Shown one piece after another: positions 2,044 through 53,358 of a stretch of DNA of 64,000 nucleotides (position 1 is its first letter; every line of letters starts with the position of its first letter). The translations under genes were made by a program, and so were the position numbers. The notes beneath the pieces are model-generated. The model did not search any database, was not told where the DNA came from, and worked only from the letters and a program-made list of their open reading frames with translations. Source of the DNA: Gammaproteobacteria bacterium (GTDB taxonomy: Bacteria > Pseudomonadota > Gammaproteobacteria > GCA-001735895); the NCBI GenBank assembly GCA_050288105.1, contig JBNKDE010000013.1, positions 3,519 to 67,518 of the forward strand, read 5' to 3'.

Positions 2044-2218
2044 TTAACAATAATTATACAGCCCACCTTTGTTATCGGTCACGCAGTCGACCGCAAACAC
2101 GACTGATATCAGTTAAACCGTGAAAAAGGCTTACATTTAAACAAAGTTGGACGGGCGGTATTGTTAGATCTCGTTAGCGATCTGAATGATTGGCAAGCAA
2201 TAGGTGAGCCTTAACTGA

Positions 2219-2556
2219 ACCACCAAACTCAGCCTGTTGTGGAGCGTTTCGAAGTTTGTTGTTTCTGTTCGTGTAGAGTTTCACACGCCAAAGTAGTCTG
2301 GTCTCTGTAGCTTAGATAGTGCTGGCGTGCGAGTCCCTTTCTTTTGCCCGCCCCAAAGAAAGAGACGAAAGAAAAGGGCGCCCCACTGGAGCGGCCTGCG
2401 GCTCCCCGAAAATCGAACCATTTAGCAAGGCACCGACAGACTCGCATCCCAGCTCGACTGTCCTCAGCGCACGTCCGTGTGCGCTGACCTTACTAAATGG
2501 CCCGATTTTCGGCACTCCAGAAGGGTAGATAAAACCAGCAGTTACATTCACGTTTA
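2219..2556 (-). repeat. Structured repeat element E1, copy A, in reverse orientation relative to copy C
   Basis: Roughly 93% identical to the reverse complement of 50108-50443. It contains the hairpin cagcgcacgtccgtgtgcgctg and the long-range helix ccgaaaatcgRRccatttagtaagg / ccttgctaaatggttcgattttcgg. Confidence 0.8.
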
Positions 2557-2663
2557 GCCTTCATTACCAAAGTTAGTAAAGGTTTAGACGCGGCAGGTGA
2601 TTCGGAATTTTAGCTGTCAAACTCCATAACATAGCTGAAATAGATGAGTAATCATGTAACGGA

Positions 2664-3910: not shown

Positions 3911-3928
3911 TGTATTAATCTCTTGTTT

Positions 3929-4000
3929 AACCACAGAGAACACGGAGTACACAGAGTAAAATATTGTTTACCATTAAATACCTCTGTGCTCTCTGTGGTT
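3929..4000. repeat. Heptamer-TIR intergenic repeat (CACAGAG family) R1, between acnD and prpF
   Basis: Left end aaccacagagaacacggagtacacagag, right end cctctgtgctctctgtggtt. The ends form an inverted repeat around a short AT-rich core. Confidence 0.8.
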
Positions 4001-4011
4001 GATATGTTTTA

Positions 4012-6600
4012 TTACTGATTTGATTCCAGGAAGTCCTGTGCAAAGCGTTGCAGTACGCCACCAGCGGCATAGACATGGACTTCTTCCGCGGTATCCAGAC
4101 GGCAGGTAACCGGAATTTCTACGCGTTCACCATTGGCGCGGTTCATCACCACGGTGAGATCGGCACGTGGTGCGATGTCACCAATCACGTCATAGGTTTC
4201 GGTGCCATCGATGTTATACGTATGGCGATTTTCACCCGCTTTAAATTCCAGTGGCAGCACACCCATCCCGACCAGGTTGGTGCGATGGATACGTTCGAAG
4301 CCTTCAGCGACGATCGCTTCAACACCGGCCAGTCTGACCCCTTTGGCAGCCCAGTCACGTGAAGAGCCCTGACCATAATCTGCACCCGCGATAATGATCA
4401 ATGGCTGTTTACGTTGCATATAGGTTTCAATCGCTTCCCACATGCGGCTTTCGGTGCCTTCGGGTTCGATGCGTGCGAGTGAACCCTGTTTAATCTCGCC
4501 GTTCTCGTCACGACACATTTCATTCAGCAACTTCGGATTGGCGAAGGTGGCGCGCTGAGCAGTCAGGTGGTCACCGCGATGGGTCGCATAGGAATTAAAA
4601 TCTTCTTCCGGCAGGCCCATCTTATGCAGGTAGGCACCCGCAGCACTGTTTAACATGATCGCATTAGATGGAGACAGATGATCGGTCGTAATGTTGTCAC
4701 CCAGCACGGCCAGTGGGCGCATGCCTTTCATGGTGCGTTCACCCGCCAGTGCGCCTTCCCAGTAGGGTGGGCGGCGGATATAGGTACTTTGTGGACGCCA
4801 GTCGTAGAGTGGGCTCTTGGCTTCTTCCACCTGACCCAGGTCGAACATCGGATCATAGATTTGATGGAATTGTTCGGGTTTGACACTGCTGGCAACAATG
4901 GCGTCGATCTCTTCATCGCTGGGCCAGATGTCTTTCAGGGTAATGGGGTTGCCATCTTTGTCAGTGCCCAGTGCATCCTGTTCGATGTCGAAACGAATGG
5001 TGCCTGCAATCGCATAAGCAACCACCAGTGGCGGCGAAGCGAGGAATGCCTGTTTGGCGTAAGGATGGATACGGCCGTCAAAGTTACGATTCCCGGATAA
5101 CACGGCGGTGGCATATAGATCGCGATCGATGATTTCCTGCTGGATCTTTGGATCGAGTGCGCCGCTCATGCCGTTACAGGTGGTACAGGCGTAGGCGACG
5201 ATGCCAAAGCCCAGTTTTTCCATCTCGGATAACAGGCCAGCTTCTTCCAGGTAAAGCTTTGCTACCTTGGAGCCAGGCGCGAACGAGGATTTGACCCAGG
5301 GCTTGCGCAGTAGTCCCAGCTCATTGGCCTTACGCGCTACCAGACCGGCGGCGACGACATTGCGTGGGTTACTGGTATTCGTACAGCTGGTGATGGCAGC
5401 GATGATGACTGCGCCATCGGGTAATTCACCTTCCTTCTCTTCCCATTTACCGGCAATGCCTCGAGACTCAAGATCAGAAGTAGGCAGGCGTCGGTGTGGA
5501 TTAGATGGCCCTGCCATGTTGCGGCATACCGAAGATAAATCGAATTCCAGTACGCGCTCGTATTCAACATTGGCCAGGTCATCCGCCCACAGGCCAGTCA
5601 GTTTGGCGTATTGTTCAACCAGTGCGACCTGCTCGGGTTCGCGTCCGGTCAGCTTCAGGTAATCGATGGTTTGCTCGTCGATATAAAACAGGCCCGCGGA
5701 AGCGCCAAACTCGGGCGTCATGTTAGAGATGGTCGCACGGTCACCAATGGTCAGGTTAGCGGCGCCTTCACCGAAGAATTCCAGATAAGCAGAAACAACC
5801 CTCTCGTTACGCAGGAATTCGGTCAGAGCCAGTACGATATCGGTGGCAGTAATGCCGGGCTGGCGTTTACCCACCAGTTTGACGCCGATGATATCGGGCA
5901 GGCGCATCATCGAAGGACGACCCAGCATCACGGTTTCGGCTTCCAGACCGCCCACACCAATCGCAATAACACCCAACGCATCGACATGCGGGGTATGGCT
6001 GTCGGTGCCGACGCAGGTATCCGGATAAGCTACGCCGTCGCGGGTTTGTACCACCGGAGACATCTTTTCCAGGTTGATCTGGTGCATGATGCCGTTACCG
6101 GCCGGGATCACATCGACATTCTTGAATGCGGTTTTGGTCCATTCGATAAAATGAAAGCGGTCTTCGTTACGGCGATCTTCAATCGCGCGATTCTTTTCGA
6201 AGGCATCCGCCTCAAAGCCTGCGTGCTCCACCGCCAGCGAATGGTCGACGATCAACTGGGTGGGGACGACCGGGTTTACCTCGGCAGGGTCACCACCTTT
6301 GTCCGCGATTGCATCGCGCAGACCGGCCAGGTCCACCAGTGCAGTCTGGCCGAGGATGTCATGACAAACCACACGCGCCGGATACCAGGGGAAATCCAGG
6401 TCACGCTTGCGTTCGATCAGCTGCTTGAGCGAATCGGTCAGTGCCTCGGGCTCACAACGACGCACCAGCTGTTCAGCCAGCACGCGCGAAGTGTAGGGCA
6501 GTGTTGCATAGGCACCGGGCTGAATGTCTTCAATTGCGGCGCGCGTATCAAAATAATCGAGCTGGGTTTCGGGCAATGGCTTGCGGTATTGGGTATTCAT
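4012..6600 (-). CDS. acnD: Fe-S-dependent 2-methylcitrate dehydratase AcnD (aconitase family)
   Basis: 862 aa aconitase-family protein sitting in the classic AcnD+PrpF arrangement. Confidence 0.9.
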   Translation of the reverse strand: MNTQYRKPLPETQLDYFDTRAAIEDIQPGAYATLPYTSRVLAEQLVRRCEPEALTDSLKQLIERKRDLDFPWYPARVVCHDILGQTALVDLAGLRDAIADKGGDPAEVNPVVPTQLIVDHSLAVEHAGFEADAFEKNRAIEDRRNEDRFHFIEWTKTAFKNVDVIPAGNGIMHQINLEKMSPVVQTRDGVAYPDTCVGTDSHTPHVDALGVIAIGVGGLEAETVMLGRPSMMRLPDIIGVKLVGKRQPGITATDIVLALTEFLRNERVVSAYLEFFGEGAANLTIGDRATISNMTPEFGASAGLFYIDEQTIDYLKLTGREPEQVALVEQYAKLTGLWADDLANVEYERVLEFDLSSVCRNMAGPSNPHRRLPTSDLESRGIAGKWEEKEGELPDGAVIIAAITSCTNTSNPRNVVAAGLVARKANELGLLRKPWVKSSFAPGSKVAKLYLEEAGLLSEMEKLGFGIVAYACTTCNGMSGALDPKIQQEIIDRDLYATAVLSGNRNFDGRIHPYAKQAFLASPPLVVAYAIAGTIRFDIEQDALGTDKDGNPITLKDIWPSDEEIDAIVASSVKPEQFHQIYDPMFDLGQVEEAKSPLYDWRPQSTYIRRPPYWEGALAGERTMKGMRPLAVLGDNITTDHLSPSNAIMLNSAAGAYLHKMGLPEEDFNSYATHRGDHLTAQRATFANPKLLNEMCRDENGEIKQGSLARIEPEGTESRMWEAIETYMQRKQPLIIIAGADYGQGSSRDWAAKGVRLAGVEAIVAEGFERIHRTNLVGMGVLPLEFKAGENRHTYNIDGTETYDVIGDIAPRADLTVVMNRANGERVEIPVTCRLDTAEEVHVYAAGGVLQRFAQDFLESNQ

Positions 6601-7377: not shown

Positions 7378-7442
7378 AAGTTAAGAATGATTCTTTATAT
7401 ATTGAGAATTTTTTGCGTTTATTAGTAGGTTTTAAAAGAAAT

Positions 7443-7576
7443 TAACCACAGAGGACACCGAGAACACGGAGAATGATTAGATAGGTTATCAGGCGCTACT
7501 TAAAATTTTATTTATCTAAGCGACTCAGATTTAGAAAAACCAGAATACCTCTGTGCTCTCCGTGTCCTCTGTGGTT
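7443..7576. repeat. Heptamer-TIR repeat R2
   Basis: Left end taaccacagaggacaccgagaacacggag, right end cctctgtgctctccgtgtcctctgtggtt. Confidence 0.85.
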
Positions 7577-7619
7577 AAATTCTGTTAACGATGGAAAAAA
7601 TGTATCCGCAAAAGAATCT

Positions 7620-8180: not shown

Positions 8181-8455
8181 GGTTTCACACGCTTACGCTT
8201 TCCTTGCTTCGTAGCGCCTGACGAGTACGCGTGCGAGCCCCTTTTTTGTTTGGCCAAAAAAGAGGCGCAAAAAAGGCCACCCCACCAAGCCCTTCATCGT
8301 CAAAATAGTGCCCAGATCGCGGTCGGCTCAGACGCGGGTCCAACCGCGCTGAGCCTCAAATGGCATCCCTGCCATTTGCCCCCGATCTGAACACCATTTT
8401 GCCGCGGGCTTGAAAGGGGGAATTAAGAAAAGATTTCAAGCAAAGCTTGAAATCT
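8181..8455 (-). repeat. Structured repeat element E2, copy 1, a relative of E1; ends with perfect hairpin agatttcaagcaaagcttgaaatct at 8431-8455
   Basis: Shares with E1 the module tttcacacgc...gcgtgcgag-cccttttt / aaaaaag...ggc and a ctcag...ctgag hairpin. Homologous to 43481-43780. Confidence 0.7.
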
Positions 8456-8460
8456 TTATT

Positions 8461-8745
8461 GTGTTTTTTTCCGCCCTTATTGAGTGCCGAAAATCGAGTC
8501 ATTTTGTAGGGTCAGCGCACATGGACGTGCGCTGAGGACAGTTGAGCAGGATGCGAATCTGTCCGTGCCCTGCAAAATGGCTTGATTTTCGGGGAGCCGC
8601 AGGCCACTCAATTGGGATGTCCTTTTTTTCGTCTCTTTTTTTGGACAAGCAAAAAAAGGGACTTGCACGCCTTTTAGAAAGATACTACGAAGCAAGGACA
8701 GCAAAGGCGTGTGAAACCATAATCCGGAAAGAACAAGAAAACTGA
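8461..8745 (+). repeat. Structured repeat element E1, copy B, truncated at both ends
   Basis: Roughly 80% identical to copy C and carries compensatory substitutions in its helices. It abuts the GST stop codon. Confidence 0.8.
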
Positions 8746-9875: not shown

Positions 9876-10739
9876 ATGAATACTAGAGACCTGAGTCCAG
9901 AGTTGTTACGTGCATTTGTCGCGGTTGTAGATGGGGGTGGTTTTACCCGGGCGGCTAATCGATTGAATAGTACGCAATCCACGGTCAGCCAGCAGCTTAA
10001 GCGCCTGGAAGAACGCCTGGGCGTAAGCCTGATGCAGCGTAATACCCGAGGCGTTGCATTGACTGAGCGAGGTGAGCTCATGCTGGGTTATGCCCGGCGA
10101 TTGCTGACGCTAAATGACGAAGCACTTACCGCACTGGAACAAACTCATCTTCGAGGGCGGGTACGACTGGGTTCAACCCAGGAAGTTGCCGATGGGGGGC
10201 TGGCTGATCTGCTGGCACGTTTTACCCGCCTGCATCCCGATGTCGAGCTGGAGATGCGAGTCGATAGTAATATGGCTTTACAGTATGAGGTTGAGCAGGG
10301 AGAGCTTGATCTGGCGGTTTTGTTTCAGGAGCCCGGTCAGGGTGCTCCTGGTAATGAAGTGATCGAGCGCCTGCGTCGGGTATGGGTGTCAGCACCGGGG
10401 CTGGTCATTAACCCGGATGAACCGTTGCCACTTATTCTTTCCAACGGCCCCTGTATTTTTCGCAATTCGGTATTGTCAGCACTGGATAGCATTGGTCGAC
10501 CCTGGCGTATTGTGCTTTCTACCCCTAGCCTTGCTGGAATACGTGCCGGAGTGCGCGCAGGCTTGGGTGTTTGTGTGCGCAGTGAACGCTGGCTGGAAGC
10601 CGATATGGAAATCATCGATCAGGGCCTGCCCCCGTTACCGGATGTCGAGCTTGCCATTATGTGTGGCGCAAAAACGGGCGAAAGTGTGGTTGAGCGATTA
10701 CGCATTGCCTTGCGTGGGGCACTGAGTCAGGCGGCATGA
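9876..10739 (+). CDS. LysR-family transcriptional regulator
   Basis: HTH (FTRAANRLNSTQSTVSQQLKRLE) plus a substrate-binding domain. Confidence 0.9.
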   Translation: MNTRDLSPELLRAFVAVVDGGGFTRAANRLNSTQSTVSQQLKRLEERLGVSLMQRNTRGVALTERGELMLGYARRLLTLNDEALTALEQTHLRGRVRLGSTQEVADGGLADLLARFTRLHPDVELEMRVDSNMALQYEVEQGELDLAVLFQEPGQGAPGNEVIERLRRVWVSAPGLVINPDEPLPLILSNGPCIFRNSVLSALDSIGRPWRIVLSTPSLAGIRAGVRAGLGVCVRSERWLEADMEIIDQGLPPLPDVELAIMCGAKTGESVVERLRIALRGALSQAA

Positions 10740-10752
10740 GTTCAAAAGACTG

Positions 10753-10967
10753 ATTAACCACGAAGAGCATGAAGAAAAACATTTTAACCACAGATTAGGG
10801 CAGGAAGCCCGTAAGTAGGGCAACGCAGGACGCAGTTGCCGAGGACACAGAGAACACGGAGAAGTGTGGTGTGGGATATTTTGAGGTATAAATTATCCAG
10901 TCAAACCAAGAGGTTCAATTTTAGGAAAATACAAAAACCTCTGTGCTCTCTGTGTCCTCTGTGGTTA
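10753..10967. repeat. Composite heptamer-TIR repeat R3, with embedded module-2 (agggcaggaagcccgtaagtagggcaacgcaggacgcagttgcc)
   Basis: ttaaccacgaag and ttaaccacag on the left, cctctgtgctctctgtgtcctctgtggtt on the right. Confidence 0.8.
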
Positions 10968-11056
10968 AAGAAGCGCGTTCAGGTTATTTGAAAATCAGGT
11001 TGATAGCCCAAGGTAGATTCGGCACTATCGTGATTTTCATTTCGCATGGAAGATAA

Positions 11057-15249: not shown

Positions 15250-15378
15250 GTTTCCTACAGAGTACACAGAGAACTTAGGTGCAGAATTTTTGAGGTATAA
15301 ATTATTCATTTAACACGAAGACGCTTAATGATAGGAAAATACAGAAAAACTCCGTGCTCTCCGTGTCCTCTGTGGTTT
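15250..15378. repeat. Heptamer-TIR repeat R4, left end partially truncated
   Basis: Left cctacagagtacacagagaac, right ctccgtgctctccgtgtcctctgtggttt. Confidence 0.75.
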
Positions 15379-15456
15379 AACATTTTTTAAGTTTTTTTAC
15401 CTTCGTTTGACAATTTTCCTAATGGTCGACCCATTAGTTGAGGTCAATGCAGATCT

Positions 15457-18197: not shown

Positions 18198-18418
18198 AAC
18201 AGTTTACTAGAAGGTTTCCGGTATAGTAGGTACTAGACGGATTGCTTCTAGTTCAGTCCCTTGTTTTCGATTCAGCCATACTAATCAACCGATAAAGCGA
18301 TTGTCAACGAATCAGGTCGATGGAGGAAAATGACTTTGGAACGAATGCTGCCGATTTATGTTGAGCCTGGAGTAGACTTTCTTTTTGGTTCGAATTCAAA
18401 AGTTTTCAGGGTGTTAAT

Positions 18419-18732
18419 TAGCCACCGAGAGTACGGAGCACACAGAGAGGGTTAGCGTGGTTTAATAAATTAACTGACCACGAGATAGGGCAACGCAGCA
18501 GAAACTGTCGGGTACACCTAAGGTACGAAGAAAAAATAATGTGTTTTCTCTGTGCTCTCGGTGTGCTCTGTGGTGAATAAGCTTTTTTCAGGTTACCGGG
18601 TTCTGCCGCAGCACAAGCAAGCCCCGGTAACCCACAAAGCACAACAAAGAAAACCCTTCGTAATCTTCGTGTGCTTGGCAACTGCGTCCTGCGTTGCCCT
18701 ACTTACGGGCGTCCTTGCCCTAATTCGTGGTT
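18419..18732. repeat. Heptamer-TIR repeat R5 (18419-18575) followed by a reverse-orientation module-2 copy (18655-18732)
   Basis: gccaccgagagtacggagcacacagag ... ctctgtgctctcggtgtgctctgtggtg, then ...ttggcaactgcgtcctgcgttgccctacttacgggcgtccttgccctaattcgtggttta. Confidence 0.75.
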
Positions 18733-18739
18733 TATTTAT

Positions 18740-18922
18740 TTACCGCTTATCGATAGAAACATACTCCCGGTTTTCCGGCCCGGTGTAGTTGGCGGAGGGT
18801 CGTATAATCTTGCCATCTTCACGCTGTTCGATCACATGCGCGCCCCAGCCGGAAACACGTGAGATAACAAACAAAGGGGTGAACATGTCAGTCGGTACGC
18901 CCATCTGGTTGTAGGAAAACAC
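18740..18922 (-). pseudogene. 3'-terminal remnant (last 60 codons) of a second 2-methylcitrate synthase gene (prpC')
   Basis: Its translation is identical to the C-terminal 60 aa of PrpC at 20883-22037. Nucleotide identity is about 91%, with every difference synonymous. There is no upstream gene body. Confidence 0.8.
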
Positions 18923-20362: not shown

Positions 20363-20466
20363 ATCTTCAACACACCCTACTGGAACAAAAAATTGTAATG
20401 TCAGATACAGGTTAAATTAAATAGCTGGAAATTTAATTTATACCTGATCACTGAACCCTCGCAGTC

Positions 20467-20745
20467 TTGGCGGCGCTGGACAAAATCGGTTGTCCTTGGC
20501 GTATTGTGCTTTCTACCCTCAGTCTTGTAGGAATAAGGGCTGGAGTGCGAGCCAGATTGGGTATTTGCGTAAGAAGCGAAAGATGGCAGGAAGATAATCT
20601 GTGTATTGTAGACCAGGGTCTGCCAGCGTTACCTGATGTTAAACTGGCGATCCTGTCGGGCACGAACACAGAAGAAAAGGTAGTCGAGAGATTAAGAACA
20701 GCCTTACGCGGTGCGCTAAGTCAGTCAAGTAGAAATGAATATTAA
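20467..20745 (+). pseudogene. C-terminal remnant of a LysR-family regulator gene (LysR')
   Basis: About 75% aa identity to the C-terminal ~90 residues of the LysR protein at 9876-10739. The N-terminal part is absent. Confidence 0.7.
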
Positions 20746-38886: not shown

Positions 38887-39161
38887 TAACCACGAATTAG
38901 GGCAGGGATGCCCGTAAGTAGAGCAACGCAGGAGCAGTTGCCGAGCACACGAAGGGGTTTGAGTAATGGGAAAAGAATTTTAACCACAGAGAGCACAGAG
39001 AGCACAGAGAATTATAAAAATATTCTGTAACTATTCATCTCCTGTTTTAAGAAGACTCTGGTAATTGCCTGGCAACATATCTTACATTCTTCGTGCCCTT
39101 CGTGGTTTATCAAACCAGAAACACACAAATCTTCTCTGTGTACTCTGTGCTCTCTGTGGTT
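38887..39161. repeat. Composite repeat R7: module-2 left end, CACAGAG left end, module-2 right end, CACAGAG right end (interleaved)
   Basis: ttaaccacgaattagggcagggatgcccgtaagtagagcaacgcaggagcagttgccgagcacacgaagg ... ttaaccacagagagcacagagagcacagag ... cttcgtgcccttcgtggttta ... ctctgtgtactctgtgctctctgtggtt. Confidence 0.8.
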
Positions 39162-39212
39162 CAAATTAACCAAGAGATCTTCTAAGCACACTCGGTGGTG
39201 TAACGCCACTGT

Positions 39213-43231: not shown

Positions 43232-43480
43232 CTTTCGGACGTGTTGAAAACCCTAGCTGATTAGTGATGATACCGGACGCCCCCCCTCGTTCCCATGCTC
43301 GGAAACTGCTCGGCTCAGGCATCCTGCTTCGCTCTACCACCTAAATCCCTTTAGGCGTTTTTGCGTTACTCTCGACAATTGCATCCTGCATTGTTCTACC
43401 TTCGACCATCCATGATCTCGTACCACATACGTCCCTGTAGGAGTCCGAGAGGGAATGCATATAGCATCTGACTAAGTTCT

Positions 43481-43780
43481 GATTTCACACGCTGAAAACT
43501 TTTCTCGCTCTGTAGTTAAGTCGTGCCTGCGTGCGAGTAACTTTTCAGGCATGAAAAGTCACCAAAAATGCTTTCCCAACAGTCCCTTCTTCCGTCAAAA
43601 GCACAGCCAAATCGCGGTCGGGGCAGACGCGTTCCTGACGCGACTGCCCCTAAATTCGCTTCCCTGCGAATTTACCCCGATTTGACTGCACTTTTGCCGC
43701 GGGTCTGGATGGGGTTTAAAAAACAGAGATTTCAAGCACAGCTTGAAGTCTCAAGAAACTCAAGTTTCAAGATCTGATCC
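43481..43780 (-). repeat. Structured repeat element E2, copy 2; ends with hairpin agatttcaagcacagcttgaagtct at 43727-43751
   Basis: Collinear with 8181-8455: tttcacacgc...gcgtgcgag..., cgtcaaaag...atcgcggtcggGGcagacgcg...cgcgaCTgCCcc, ttttgccgcggg. Confidence 0.7.
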
Positions 43781-43965: not shown

Positions 43966-44430
43966 ATGTCGTTATCTGTATATTCTGCTGCACAAAGATT
44001 AGCGGAGAAATCCGGTTGGTCTCTGTCAAATTTAGAGATTCAGAAATTGCTGTACTTGGCGCATATGTTTCATATGGGCGAGCACGAAGAGCCTTTGGTA
44101 AATGAACATTTTGAGGCTTGGGATTACGGCCCAGTTCAACCCGATCTTTATCATAAGCTGAAAATTTACGGCTCTTCTCCAGTGAAACATATTTTCACCC
44201 GCACAAAACCATTCGATGAAGGATCTGAAACGGAAATTATCGACAAAACTGTAGACCAGCTTTCACATCGAGCGGCTGGATGGCTGGTCGCTGCTACGCA
44301 CTGGGACAAAGGCGCGTGGGCTAAATACTATGAGCCTGGCACGAAAGGAATAATTATTCCTAATTCTGAAATCCAACAGGAATATAGAGATAGAGTAGAT
44401 GCACTCAGAAGAAGACAAGCCACCATTTGA
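43966..44430 (+). CDS. Panacea-domain (DUF4065, SocA/PanA-like) putative antitoxin
   Basis: 154 aa. The conserved YLAHMFHMGEHEEPLVNEHFEAWDYGPVQPDLY region matches my recollection of the Panacea family. Preceded by ggagg. Confidence 0.6.
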   Translation: MSLSVYSAAQRLAEKSGWSLSNLEIQKLLYLAHMFHMGEHEEPLVNEHFEAWDYGPVQPDLYHKLKIYGSSPVKHIFTRTKPFDEGSETEIIDKTVDQLSHRAAGWLVAATHWDKGAWAKYYEPGTKGIIIPNSEIQQEYRDRVDALRRRQATI

Positions 44431-44743
44431 TCAACTGGACGATCTTCTTTATGAAGAACCGAGCAAGACAGATCAGCAGATATCTGCCCTTGAAAAGCAA
44501 CTAGAGTACGAACGCGATGCCAGGATGGAAGATCGATTTGTATTTATCGTGATAATAGTCCTTTTATTGGATATCGTTTTCTTTTCTGTTATGCCTACTT
44601 TCGGTGGCCCGCTAGCGCTACTAATCCTGGAACTTATAATTTTGATACCGCTGGCCCGAAAGATGGGAATGGAAGAACTTGCCGCAATATTTCATGGAGT
44701 TGTATCCCGTATGGCTGGAAGAGCAAATGATGCTGATGATTAA
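44399..44743 (+). CDS. Small two-TM membrane protein, candidate toxin partner
   Basis: 114 aa overlapping the upstream gene by 32 nt. Hydrophobic segments FVFIVIIVLLLDIVFFSV and LALLILELIILIPLA. Confidence 0.45.
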   Translation: MHSEEDKPPFDQLDDLLYEEPSKTDQQISALEKQLEYERDARMEDRFVFIVIIVLLLDIVFFSVMPTFGGPLALLILELIILIPLARKMGMEELAAIFHGVVSRMAGRANDADD

Positions 44744-49461: not shown

Positions 49462-50079
49462 ATGGGGATAGTAGAAATTATTTCCCTATGTTTGATCATG
49501 CTCATCGGTGCATCGATTCCGAGCTCAAGCGTTGTGCTCGTGGTTGCGCGCTCGTTAACTCATGGTATACCCAATGGAATTTCTGCCTCTCTGGGTATCG
49601 TGTGTGGTGATGTGATATTTATTTTACTGGTGATTTACGGCTTATCTGAAATTGCAGAATCCATGGGCTGGTTATTTCTGCTAATTAAGTACCTTGGTGC
49701 GAGCTATCTAATCTGGTTGGGTGTTACGCTGCTATTCTCAAAGTCAACAGTAATAGCCGTCGAGAAAAATACCCAAAAAGGAGATTTAGCCACCAGTTTT
49801 GTTGCAGGTTTATTGTTAACGCTGGGTGATGTCAAAGCAATTTTCTTTTATATCAGCCTGTTTCCAGCGTTTATTGATCCAGCAAAACTCTCTGCCATAG
49901 ATGTCGCTGTGGTATTGATCATTGATATCTTCCTGGTTGGTGGGATTAAAATATTTTATGCATACTCAGCTAAAAAAGTTGCTTCACTTTCCAGTAAACA
50001 TCGTTTGCAAAAAGGCACAAAAAAACTGGCGGGTGGTTTAATGGTTGGTGCTGGTGGCTATTTAATGGTAAAGGCTTAA
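49462..50079 (+). CDS. LysE/RhtB-family translocator
   Basis: 205 aa, 6 TM. Confidence 0.6.
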   Translation: MGIVEIISLCLIMLIGASIPSSSVVLVVARSLTHGIPNGISASLGIVCGDVIFILLVIYGLSEIAESMGWLFLLIKYLGASYLIWLGVTLLFSKSTVIAVEKNTQKGDLATSFVAGLLLTLGDVKAIFFYISLFPAFIDPAKLSAIDVAVVLIIDIFLVGGIKIFYAYSAKKVASLSSKHRLQKGTKKLAGGLMVGAGGYLMVKA

Positions 50080-50107
50080 CGAGTCAGCGCTTAAAACAAT
50101 TAAAGCG

Positions 50108-50443
50108 AAACGTGAATGCAACTTTTGGTTTTATCTCCCCTTCTGGAGTGCCGAAAATGGGGCCATTTAGTAAGGTCAGCGCACAGGGACGTGCGCTGAG
50201 GACAGTCGAGCACGGATGCGAGTCTGTCCGTGCCTTGCTAAATGGTTCGATTTTCGGGAAGCCGCAGGCCGCTCCAGTGGGGCGCCCTTTTCTTTCGTCT
50301 CTTTCTTTTGGGCGAGCAAAAGAAAGGGACTCGCACGCCAGCCAGGAAGATACTACAAAGCCAGGAAAGCTAAGGCGTGTGAAATTCTACACGATCAGAA
50401 ACAACAAACTTCAAAACGCTCCACAACAGGCTGAGTTTGGTGG
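50108..50443 (+). repeat. Structured repeat element E1, copy C (most complete)
   Basis: Helices: 50151-50175 pairs with 50233-50258; hairpin 50176-50199; hairpin gtctctttcttttg/caaaagaaagggac at 50297-50330. Confidence 0.8.
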
Positions 50444-50477
50444 GTGATCAGGGAACCAAATTAGATTAGATAGTAAA

Positions 50478-50500
50478 CAGGGCAGAGAGACTCTGCCCCG
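50478..50500. terminator. Hairpin gggcagagagactctgccc downstream of fbaB
   Basis: GC stem with flanking T/A runs. Confidence 0.5.
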
Positions 50501-50519
50501 TTTAAGAGAGTAACCTGCT

Positions 50520-51569
50520 TCAGGCTATGGTTATGCTGTCATCCAGATAAACGTCCTGAATGGCATTTAATAATTTTATACCTTCTTCCATCGGCTTCTG
50601 GAATGCCTTGCGTCCAGAAATCAGACCCATGCCTCCGGCGCGTTTATTGATCACGGCTGTACGAACCGCCTGATGCAAATCATCTTCACCTGAACCGCCT
50701 CCTGAATTGATCAGGCCGGCGCGCCCCATGTAACAGTTGGCGACCTGGTAACGGGTCAGGTCGATGGGGTGGTCTGTGGTCAGTTCGCTATACACCTTTG
50801 CATGTGTCTTGCCAAATTTGATCGCATTATAGCCGCCATTATTCTCGGCCTGTTTCTGTTTGATGATATCCGCATCGATGGTGGCAGCCAGATGATTGGC
50901 CTGCCCCGTCAGGTCGGCAGACACATGGTAATCCACGCCGTCGTTTTTAAAATCACTGTTACGCAGGTAGGCCCACAGGATGGTCACCATGCCCAGCTCG
51001 TGGGCGCGTTCGAAGGCTTCGGAAATTTCAATAATCTGACGCCTGCATTCCGGCGAACCGTAGTAGATGGTCGCCCCCACCGCTGCTGCGCCCATATCGA
51101 AAGCCTGCTCGACGCTGGCAAACAGGGTCTGGTCATAAAAATTGGGATAACTCAGAATCTCGTTATGGTTGATTTTGACGATAAAGGGAATCTTGTGAGC
51201 ATAGTCGCGGGCTACTGAACTGAGCACACCGAGCGTGGAAGCAACCGCATTACAACCACCGTTAATCGCTAGCTCGACGATATGCGCAGGGTCAAAATAG
51301 GCTGGGTTAGGGGCAAACGAGGCGCCTGCCGAATGTTCCACACCCTGGTCTACCGGCAACAATGACAGATATCCCGTACCTGCCAGGCGGCCCGTGTTGT
51401 ACATTGCGTTCAGGTTGCGTAGAACAGAAGGCTTGCGGTTCTTGCTGGCAACGACGCGTTCGATGTAGTCGGGGCCAGGCGCATGGATCGTGTTTTTAGG
51501 AATGCCGCTGCAGACATGGCTCAATAATGCTTCGGCTTCATCACCTAAGATCGTTTGACTATGACTCAT
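50520..51569 (-). CDS. fbaB: Class I fructose-bisphosphate aldolase FbaB
   Basis: 350 aa, near-collinear with E. coli FbaB as I recall it ([30 protein letters not shown]). Start set at MSHSQ. Confidence 0.9.
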
Positions 51570-53166: not shown

Positions 53167-53217
53167 TATTTTTATCATACTTAAGATTGTGCTGATCTAC
53201 AGACTTTAAAGAGAATA

Positions 53218-53358
53218 TTCACCACCGAGGACACAGAGTTCACGGAGGTTAAAAGCTCAATTTTAAATTCAGAAGGCTTGTGCAATATTGAAACGTGAAT
53301 TCAATAAAATAAGAATAATAATCAGGTAAATGATTTTCTCAGTGAACTCTGTGGTGAT
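53218..53358. repeat. Heptamer-TIR repeat R8
   Basis: Left ttcaccaccgaggacacagagttcacggagg, right ctcagtgaactctgtggtgat. Confidence 0.75.

Follow-up and report, generated by a model that had tools for sequence, protein, structure and literature searches.

A multicopy structured RNA assigned to the TwoAYGGAY family, with putative transposon carriage, in a gammaproteobacterial contig

TwoAYGGAY (Rfam:RF01731) is an RNA motif with two AYGGAY terminal loops, in which the closing stem P1 can be very large, e.g. 24 bp (Weinberg 2010, PMC2864571). It occurs in gamma-proteobacteria, Clostridia and human-gut metagenomes and was rated a probable RNA, not cis-regulatory (PMC2864571 and its supplement), and a tandem G-A was noted in one of its stems (PMC4333381). 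Binding of CsrA was predicted for it through motif matching by Gardner and Eldai, who described validation as in progress. The consensus of CsrA ligands obtained by systematic evolution of ligands by exponential enrichment (SELEX) is RUACARGGAUGU; ACA and GGA are fixed in it, and the GGA sits in the loop of a hairpin (PMC4347634). Since 2010 TwoAYGGAY has remained an orphan motif, the motif-based CsrA prediction being the sole functional clue. Here we analyse a 64,000-nt stretch from a Gammaproteobacteria bacterium (assembly GCA_050288105.1, contig JBNKDE010000013.1, positions 3,519–67,518 of the forward strand; hereafter the window), which carries several copies of an element designated E1. 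A first-pass annotation of the window had described E1 as a structured element in three copies, here named A, B and C (C at 50108–50443), and had proposed three identities: a mobile structured noncoding RNA, a palindromic-repeat superstructure, and a type I toxin-like locus. The first of these proved to be the right one.

Copies of E1 and their assignment to TwoAYGGAY

The 5' domain of E1 can be assigned, by model score and architecture, to TwoAYGGAY, a member of clan CL00106 (Csr-Rsm protein-binding). In a permissive scan of Rfam, a check that the first-pass annotation had proposed, nucleotides 8480–8599 of copy B matched the full model (positions 1–168) with 44.0 bits (gathering cut-off 43; E = 3e-6); a gathering-mode scan of the whole window did not report this match, owing to a filter effect. 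The copy at L001, one of the loci from other contigs, gave a local 29-bit match covering both hairpins, the AG linker and the trailing CG. The GGA is invariant in both apical loops of all nine full copies of the main subfamily (type 1), and, depending on the copy, strict AYGGAY is found in one loop or in both (AGGGAC and ACGGAU in C; ACGGAC in the first loop of A; AUGGAC in the first loop of B).

An nhmmer profile placed the type-1 copies of the window at 50109–50413 (+), 2554–2250 (-) and 8446–8745 (+), with E values of 1e-97 to 1e-101, and a 27-nt core pattern matched three times against 0.00 expected, confirming the three places given earlier. The identities were also roughly as claimed: between A and C, identity is 94% across 245 nt and 87% across another 91 nt (89.6% over 346 nt in an alternative alignment), and B is 84% identical to A or C (B vs C over 262 nt). 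Two further, divergent copies on the minus strand, found by nhmmer and blastn and not described before, bring the total in the window to five, in two deep subfamilies: type 1 (A, B and C) and type 2 (8181–8418 and 43481–43713). Type-2 copies were also found in L001, L007 and L008, and a type-2 copy stands head-to-head with a type-1 copy at four loci (that of B in the window, L001, L007 and L008). The window copies are as follows.

50098–50452, plus strand: the entire repeat unit of copy C; its homology with A, L005, L006 and L007 runs from 50098 through to the terminal inverted repeat (TIR) ...GGTGGGTGATCAGG
2211–2656, minus strand: copy A, a unit resembling a miniature inverted-repeat transposable element (MITE), with 5' TIR (2656–2634), leader of ~100 nt, RNA core (2525–2278), CA-rich tail and degenerate 3' end
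8474–8717, plus strand: copy B, type-1 RNA core without MITE ends, including the Rfam match
8181–8418, minus strand: copy B', type 2, head-to-head with B; found by nhmmer (3' half) and by a custom covariance model (CM; 56 bits, E = 1e-9)
43481–43713, minus strand: solo type-2 copy; nhmmer E = 5e-8, custom CM 57 bits against 14.5 on the reverse strand

The custom CM was trained solely on type-1 5' domains; both window type-2 copies were matched over the entire length of the model (E ~1e-9), and it had no additional match anywhere in the 64 kb. The family is rare in the public collections scanned: core 25–27-mer patterns gave one match in species-representative genomes and one in metagenome contigs, and none in viral contigs, plasmids or phages. 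Since gene callers put a spurious frame of ~100 aa on the repeats, a protein search could recover extra copies together with their DNA.

A conserved RNA fold

It is strongly supported that E1 is a genuine structured RNA of ~250 nt. From the alignment of the nine full type-1 copies (A, B, C, L001 and L004 to L008, the non-window copies coming from five other contigs), RNAalifold derived 85 pairs in eight helices (P1, P2, H2, H3, P5, H4, H6 and H7); 96.1% of the alignment cells pair, 18 of the 85 pairs are compensatory, and none of 500 shuffles reached the observed value on any of five measures. When partners were slid by 1–3 columns, 1–4 compensatory pairs and 35–45% pairing were left. The alignment of five type-2 sequences gave 72 pairs, 23 of them compensatory, in the same layout as in type 1. 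In a joint alignment of 12 sequences from both subfamilies, which is CM-guided and thus fitted to structure, compensatory changes are seen in 37 of 59 pairs, and pairing extends to 95.4% of cells, compared with 77.2% in shuffles. The earlier claim of a multicopy element with covariation-supported helices thus gained strength as copies were added.

The fold consists of a rod of ~37 bp (P1 and P2) supporting two neighbouring hairpins, H2 and H3, plus a 3-bp mini-hairpin, P5; 3' of the rod are H4, a U-rich/A-rich hairpin of 12–14 bp, and then the 8-bp H6, which together with the 4-bp inner helix H7 closes a variable loop. In copy C the parts, all on the plus strand and with the helices as given by RNAalifold, are as follows.

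50138–50385: structured RNA core, P1 to H7
50138–50282: TwoAYGGAY-type 5' domain (custom CM 171 bits; homology to copy B)
50138–50150/50270–50282: P1
50151–50175/50233–50257: P2 (25 bp)
50176–50199: H2
50185–50190: H2 apical loop AGGGAC, in the context CACA-G-GGA-CGUG, which fits the CsrA-type ACA-N-GGA
50200–50229: H3
50213–50216: H3 apical loop CGGA (GCA-CGGA-UGC); GGAUGCGA is invariant in 9/9 copies
50208–50209 and 50220–50221: tandem G-A/A-G in the H3 stem, invariant in 9/9 copies (alignment columns 94–95 facing 106–107, flanked by the paired columns 93/108 and 96/105)
50261–50269: P5
50297–50382: 3' domain, outside the Rfam model
50297–50330: H4 (14 bp)
50331–50338/50375–50382: H6
50340–50343/50368–50371: H7

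Pairing is kept in 97% of the cells of the 25-bp P2 and in 94% of those of a 12-bp P1 extension that had not been noticed before, with 6 and 3 compensatory pairs, respectively. The two compensatory changes reported earlier for the 25-bp helix were recovered (columns 55/175, A-U to U-A; columns 59/171, A-U to G-C). For the 14-bp hairpin H4, the reported paired deletion stands, as one C-G pair missing from B (columns 242/259), but the paired substitution reported with it had been double-counted and is not present. In the 3' domain, aligned for 13 sequences of both subfamilies, 5 of 20 pairs are compensatory (H4, 4; H6, 1).

There are 64 G-U cells against 9 A-C cells, an excess that shows one strand to be functional, the element strand. 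The 5' domain of copy C likewise scores 171 bits with the custom CM against 32 bits on the reverse strand, and copy C has a minimum free energy of -128.6 kcal/mol (z = -6.8). Within the A/C subfamily (A, C, L005, L006 and L007), 35 substitutions fall in 75 unpaired columns and 23 in 170 paired columns (a 3.5-fold lower rate), and pairing is preserved in 11 of the 23 changes in stems. Selection on the fold still acts within this young subfamily. The type-1 copy of L001, in a related metagenome-assembled genome, has an insertion of ~50 nt in the 3' arm of P2 (L001 5047–5096) with 86.7% of its pairs intact; this copy seems to be decaying, and the type-2 partner is intact.

The four kinds of apical hairpin (H2 and H3 of type 1, Ha and Hb of type 2) all carry GGA in the loop, on stems that covary and with a variable N position, and they match the CsrA SELEX consensus. 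The loop contexts are CACA-N-GGA-CGUG in H2, where N of ACA-N-GGA varies among G, C and U in the nine type-1 copies, GCA-N-GGA-UGC at the tip of H3, and UGACA-N-GGA-UGUCA in Ha; the loops of Hb are UUGGA, CUGGA, CAGGA or GGGAA. The type-2 hairpins of the window are as follows.

8378–8357, minus strand: Ha of copy B', loop GGGA in GGCAGGGAUGCC
8355–8325, minus strand: Hb of copy B', loop UUGGA
within 43481–43713, minus strand: hairpins of the solo type-2 copy, Ha with UCGCAGGGAAGCGA and Hb with loop CAGGA

The published TwoAYGGAY copies of Psychromonas ingrahamii, of which there are several in the genome, have downstream of them the same hairpin as the 3' domain of E1 (UUUUGGUUACUUUUCUUUU...AAAGAAAAGUAAC) and then an ACGCC...GGCG helix. 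Their direct similarity to E1 is weak (nhmmer E 1e-3 to 5e-3, in H4 only), and the proposed link is drawn from the Rfam model and the common architecture. The 3' domain seems characteristic of the gammaproteobacterial branch, and the curated model lacks it.

Several other structural candidates were discarded on inspection. A pseudoknot between GCGAGUC in H3 and GACUCGC 3' of H4 is broken by changes in B, L008 and L004; a terminal helix of 5' GGUUUU with 3' GAAACC is unsupported by RNAalifold; and the bases of an apparent terminator, CGCUCCAGUGGGGCG with its U-run, instead belong to the covarying P1 extension. A hammerhead ribozyme (from a CUGANGA-like string), group II intron domains, a retron msr/msd, an IS605/IscB omega-RNA and a bridge RNA had no Rfam match, and there is no reverse transcriptase, TnpB or recombinase nearby.

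Transposon carriage and genomic surroundings

The A/C subfamily can be regarded, on the evidence of its termini, as the cargo of a MITE, with copy C as a 5'-truncated insertion beside a LysE gene. Its members share ~100 nt upstream and ~60 nt downstream of the RNA, in a unit of ~445 bp with the ends CATGATTACCCATCTGTTTCAGC (5') and GCTGAGTTTGGTGGGTAATCAGG (3'), or in short form CATGATTACCCATC...GGGTAATCAGG. These ends, which had not been described before, form inverted repeats that are imperfect, with 17 of 23 positions in agreement: the 5' TIR CATGATTACCCATCTGTTTCAGC (found in A, L006 and L007; L005 differs at this TIR) pairs in A, L005, L006 and L007 with the reverse complement CCTGATTACCCACCAAACTCAGC. 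Exact target-site duplications (TSDs) of 8 bp were found on both sides of L007 (TAAAAGTT) and L006 (TAGTTTTT), and the flanks of L005 (ATACTTTT vs ATAATTTT) match at 7 of 8 positions; the duplications are AT-rich. Copy C starts at 50098, 19 nt past the LysE stop codon (50079), and lacks the 5' TIR and most of the leader; its 3' TIR is intact.

50430–50452, plus strand: 3' TIR of copy C, GCTGAGTTTGGTGGGTGATCAGG, reverse complement of the 5' TIR

TIRs together with 8-bp target duplications point to a non-autonomous DNA transposon of ~445 bp, and carriage by such an element would be the reason for the scattered, unrelated insertion sites of the subfamily. Copies B, L004, L008 and L001 and every type-2 copy are without TIR ends, yet have kept the structure. 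In the closest relative (L009, with an aldolase 95% identical), the contig ends 36 nt past the aldolase stop (4062–4098), where the window has the repeat, which may be what broke the assembly.

All copies have ordinary metabolic genes beside them, unrelated from one copy to another. Copy C follows lysE, A follows prpF with an intrinsic terminator between them, and L006 follows a gene of 119 aa, while L004 and L007 are situated upstream of uppP and moaC; the solo type-2 copy is antisense to both of its neighbours. The B-type head-to-head pair lies between GNAT and GST genes in the window, and in L001 it is accompanied by quinone oxidoreductase and AlaX/PhaB genes. Directly upstream of three RNA copies, at two loci of the window only, are boxes of the form TTCAAGC-N3-GCTTGAA.

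8429–8457, no strand: perfect palindrome AAAGATTTCAAGC-AAA-GCTTGAAATCTTT between B' and B; a related box is upstream of the solo type-2 copy
43731–43747, no strand: palindromic box TTCAAGCACAGCTTGAA of repeat family D8, with the solo type-2 copy 18 nt downstream of it

The equivalent spacers of L001, L007 and L008 lack the box. TTTCAAG recurs within type-2 P1, and several CTTGAAA/CTTGAGA repeats are present at 43750–43775. By their sequence the boxes could be weak bidirectional terminators or regulator-binding sites. A role as GacA-type upstream sites is doubtful, as they are too near the RNA and are missing at 3 of 5 comparable loci.

Other features of the window are worth recording. Beside the solo type-2 copy, at 43966–44743, a gene for a SocA/Panacea-domain antitoxin-like protein (154 aa) overlaps an ORF of 114 aa without a Pfam match, and the two may form a toxin-antitoxin pair. 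A second repeat family, unrelated to E1 and with ends TTAACCACAGAG-NN-CAC-N-GAG-NN-CACAGAG, a 9-nt periodic motif, is present at 3917–3967, 7432–7588, 10908–10969, 15319–15390, 18408–18447, 18546–18586, 20732–20780, 38970–39011, 39123–39164 and 53208–53247; at 7432–7588, between GntR and GNAT genes, two inverted arms of the CACAGAG repeat lie 77 nt apart and resemble a small MITE or a doublet of repetitive extragenic palindromes (REP). A third repeat, GCCCGTAAGTAGGGCAACGCAGGACGCAGTTGCC..., is found in both orientations at 10802–10861, 18656–18732 and 38888–38933 and adjoins CACAGAG repeats. A 176-nt stretch at the 3' end of a prpC-like citrate synthase gene occurs twice, 2.1 kb apart (18741–18916 and 20884–21059, 91% identical), and 261 nt of the 3' end of a LysR gene (10470–10730) recur ~10 kb downstream (20464–20724, 71% identity); these duplications may be a sign that the region from 10.7 to 20.7 kb was rearranged or received an insertion.

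CsrA binding, rival explanations and comparison with described systems

On balance we favour the explanation that E1 is a mobile RNA of the TwoAYGGAY family that probably binds CsrA and is MITE-borne in the A/C subfamily. CsrA binding is suggested by motif and fold: each RNA has two high-quality hairpin sites and 1–2 more conserved GGA sites. Under this explanation, i) the element strand would be transcribed, ii) the two GGA hairpins, 27 nt apart, would bind both RNA-binding faces of one CsrA/RsmA dimer, and iii) the RNAs would titrate or otherwise engage CsrA, as has been proposed for TwoAYGGAY by motif matching. That type 2, although rebuilt, keeps two GGA hairpins on a long rod suggests that it is the hairpins that are selected. 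Across the entire window, the octamer CANGGAYG is not enriched (18 occurrences against 17.5 expected), but 6 of the 18 fall within the ~1.4 kb made up by the element. At 43380–43440 (-), closely downstream of the solo type-2 copy, three GGA hairpin-like motifs (ACAGGGACGU, UCAUGGAUGG and GCAGGAUGC) occur in ~60 nt, in a region that folds no better than shuffles (z = +0.5).

Several observations weigh against this explanation. Copy B alone reached the Rfam cut-off; copies A and C had no TwoAYGGAY match at E <= 10 in Rfam scans of 2200–2600 and 50000–50520, probably because of filters and non-Y loop bases, and their membership therefore rests on homology to B (84% for C) and on the family CM (171 bits for C). 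The TSDs are clear in L005 to L007 only, as window copy A is degenerate at its 3' end and C is truncated; neither an autonomous partner nor an empty site, the latter sought through aldolase homologues, could be found, the window contains no transposase, and there was no plasmid match. Sigma-70-like promoters and intrinsic terminators occur at no consistent place in any copy, and their counts equal the shuffle expectation. The conserved GGA sites, 2–4 per RNA, are well below the number in CsrB or RsmY/Z, and most of the RNA mass (the rod, H4 and H6) is left without a role under a simple sponge model. A csrA gene is absent from the window and the fetched loci, and in the literature, including that after Gardner and Eldai, we found no CsrA-binding experiment on any TwoAYGGAY RNA.

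Two of the rival explanations accept the fold and give it another use. In one, the structure serves the mobile element itself, as folded single-stranded DNA or RNA for mobilisation by a transposase or host factor or for copy-number control, with the GGA loops bound by an element-specific dimeric protein. It draws on the TIRs and TSDs of the A/C subfamily, on copies at unrelated loci without a detectable promoter or terminator, on the tolerance of G-T wobble in single-stranded DNA too, and on the conservation of the rod and 3' domain, which a CsrA sponge does not account for. However, retention of the structure in B, L004, L008, L001 and all type-2 copies without TIRs, the lack of covariation between the TIRs (L005 alters the 5' TIR only) and the specific match of the loops to the CsrA consensus speak against it, and to our knowledge DDE cut-and-paste elements with 8-bp TSDs are not known to require internal folds; we consider this rival unlikely. 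A little more unlikely still is a cis-acting role in neighbouring mRNAs, as a stabiliser or RNase barrier in the 3' untranslated region (UTR) or as a UTR that responds to CsrA, comparable to REP/BIME (bacterial interspersed mosaic element) or ERIC sequences. Most copies do lie just 3' of a gene in the same orientation (as with lysE, prpF and the 119-aa gene), no promoter of their own was found, and Rfam classes TwoAYGGAY as "Cis-reg". On the other hand, in Weinberg 2010 the motif is rated not cis-regulatory and its gene context inconsistent, an intrinsic terminator parts A from prpF, the solo type-2 copy is antisense to both neighbours, and a 250-nt multi-branched fold with sequence-specific loops exceeds the needs of a stabiliser. 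The earlier REP/BIME candidate likewise falls away, REP sequences being simple palindromes of ~35–110 nt, often in doublets, whereas the E1 fold has eight helices; a REP-like family distinct from E1 is, however, present in the window.

The remaining rival, a small-protein or hok-like type I toxin locus, goes back to the conserved embedded ORF of the first-pass annotation.

50216–50434, plus strand: ORF of 72 codons in copy C, judged incidental

This frame is, as had been stated, open in A, B and C, with indels compatible with the frame: three separate 1-nt deletions in B restore it. Its conservation as a coding sequence did not hold up: substitutions at codon positions 1/2/3 number 17/13/11, without a third-position excess, synonymous changes amount to 21% against 23% expected, and only 8 codons of the frame are left in L008 and 36 in L004, while in L001 it is disrupted. 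An overlapping frame of ~100 aa, called by gene finders in six copies, has a mild synonymous excess (38% against 25% expected, from pairs that are not independent), but it is frameshifted in B, and parts of it are out of this frame in L008 and L004. In type-2 copies, all six frames contain stops. Public annotations carry "hypothetical proteins" of 86–116 aa on the repeats (50157–50447 in the window and homologues P0001 to P0006), which are probably spurious predictions; none of the gene-caller products on the repeats has a recorded Pfam domain. With two overlapping frames open in most type-1 copies and several indels compensated in frame, a coding function might be entertained; however, no small hydrophobic ORF is conserved under purifying selection, and the peptide is unlike the hydrophobic Hok helix. 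The embedded ORFs are incidental, by-products of composition, and a protein or toxin locus is very improbable.

Returning to the favoured CsrA-binding RNA, a more far-reaching and rather doubtful proposal is that the transposon spreads a CsrA-binding RNA module, in which case MITE copy number and insertion sites would set the CsrA titration capacity or put neighbouring transcripts under CsrA control, and the 3' domain would act as a second functional TwoAYGGAY module. The present data extend what is known of the motif in several ways: the conserved RNA is about twice the length of the curated model, with a covarying 3' domain also present in the culturable P. ingrahamii; cargo status of at least one lineage in a MITE would explain multicopy spread without fixed gene context; and a false small-protein annotation placed on the repeats by gene callers is removed.

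Compared with hok/sok-type toxin mRNAs, E1 has in common long-range 5'-3' pairing, overlapping small frames and multiple chromosomal copies, but it is without a conserved hydrophobic toxin ORF, its frames are broken in relatives, and its long-range pairing encloses a hairpin pair of protein-binding type. With the Csr/Rsm small RNAs (CsrB, CsrC and RsmX/Y/Z) it shares loop GGA in an ACA-N-GGA context, several paralogous copies per genome and the Rfam clan. It differs from them in having 2–4 conserved GGA sites instead of ~5–22, a long rod and a large 3' domain, and no recognisable GacA/UvrY-dependent promoter or terminal intrinsic terminator, and Rfam scans gave no match of E1 to the CMs of the Csr/Rsm sponge families. 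Bacterial MITEs that fold as RNA (Correia/NEMIS, ERIC and RUP) are, like the A/C unit, small, without transposase, bounded by TIRs and target duplications, intergenic and dispersed. Their fold is, however, essentially the TIR palindrome, whereas the TIRs of E1 lie outside the conserved fold and its cargo is an independently evolving multi-helix RNA that is also present outside the MITE.

The closest described system is TwoAYGGAY itself. E1 has the same long closing stem, two adjacent GGA hairpins with AYGGAY-type loops joined by AG, and tandem G-A in the second stem, and is likewise gamma-proteobacterial and multicopy without fixed gene context. In contrast, its conserved structure is about twice as long (12 bp more in P1, the mini-hairpin P5, H4 and H6/H7), several loops depart from AYGGAY (AGGGAC, UUGGAC), and it adds a second subfamily with rebuilt hairpins, head-to-head pairs and the TIR/TSD packaging of a transposon. 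The E1 copies are thus additional members of a known, functionally uncharacterised Rfam family, and what is new here is the extended 3' domain, the second subfamily and the MITE carriage.

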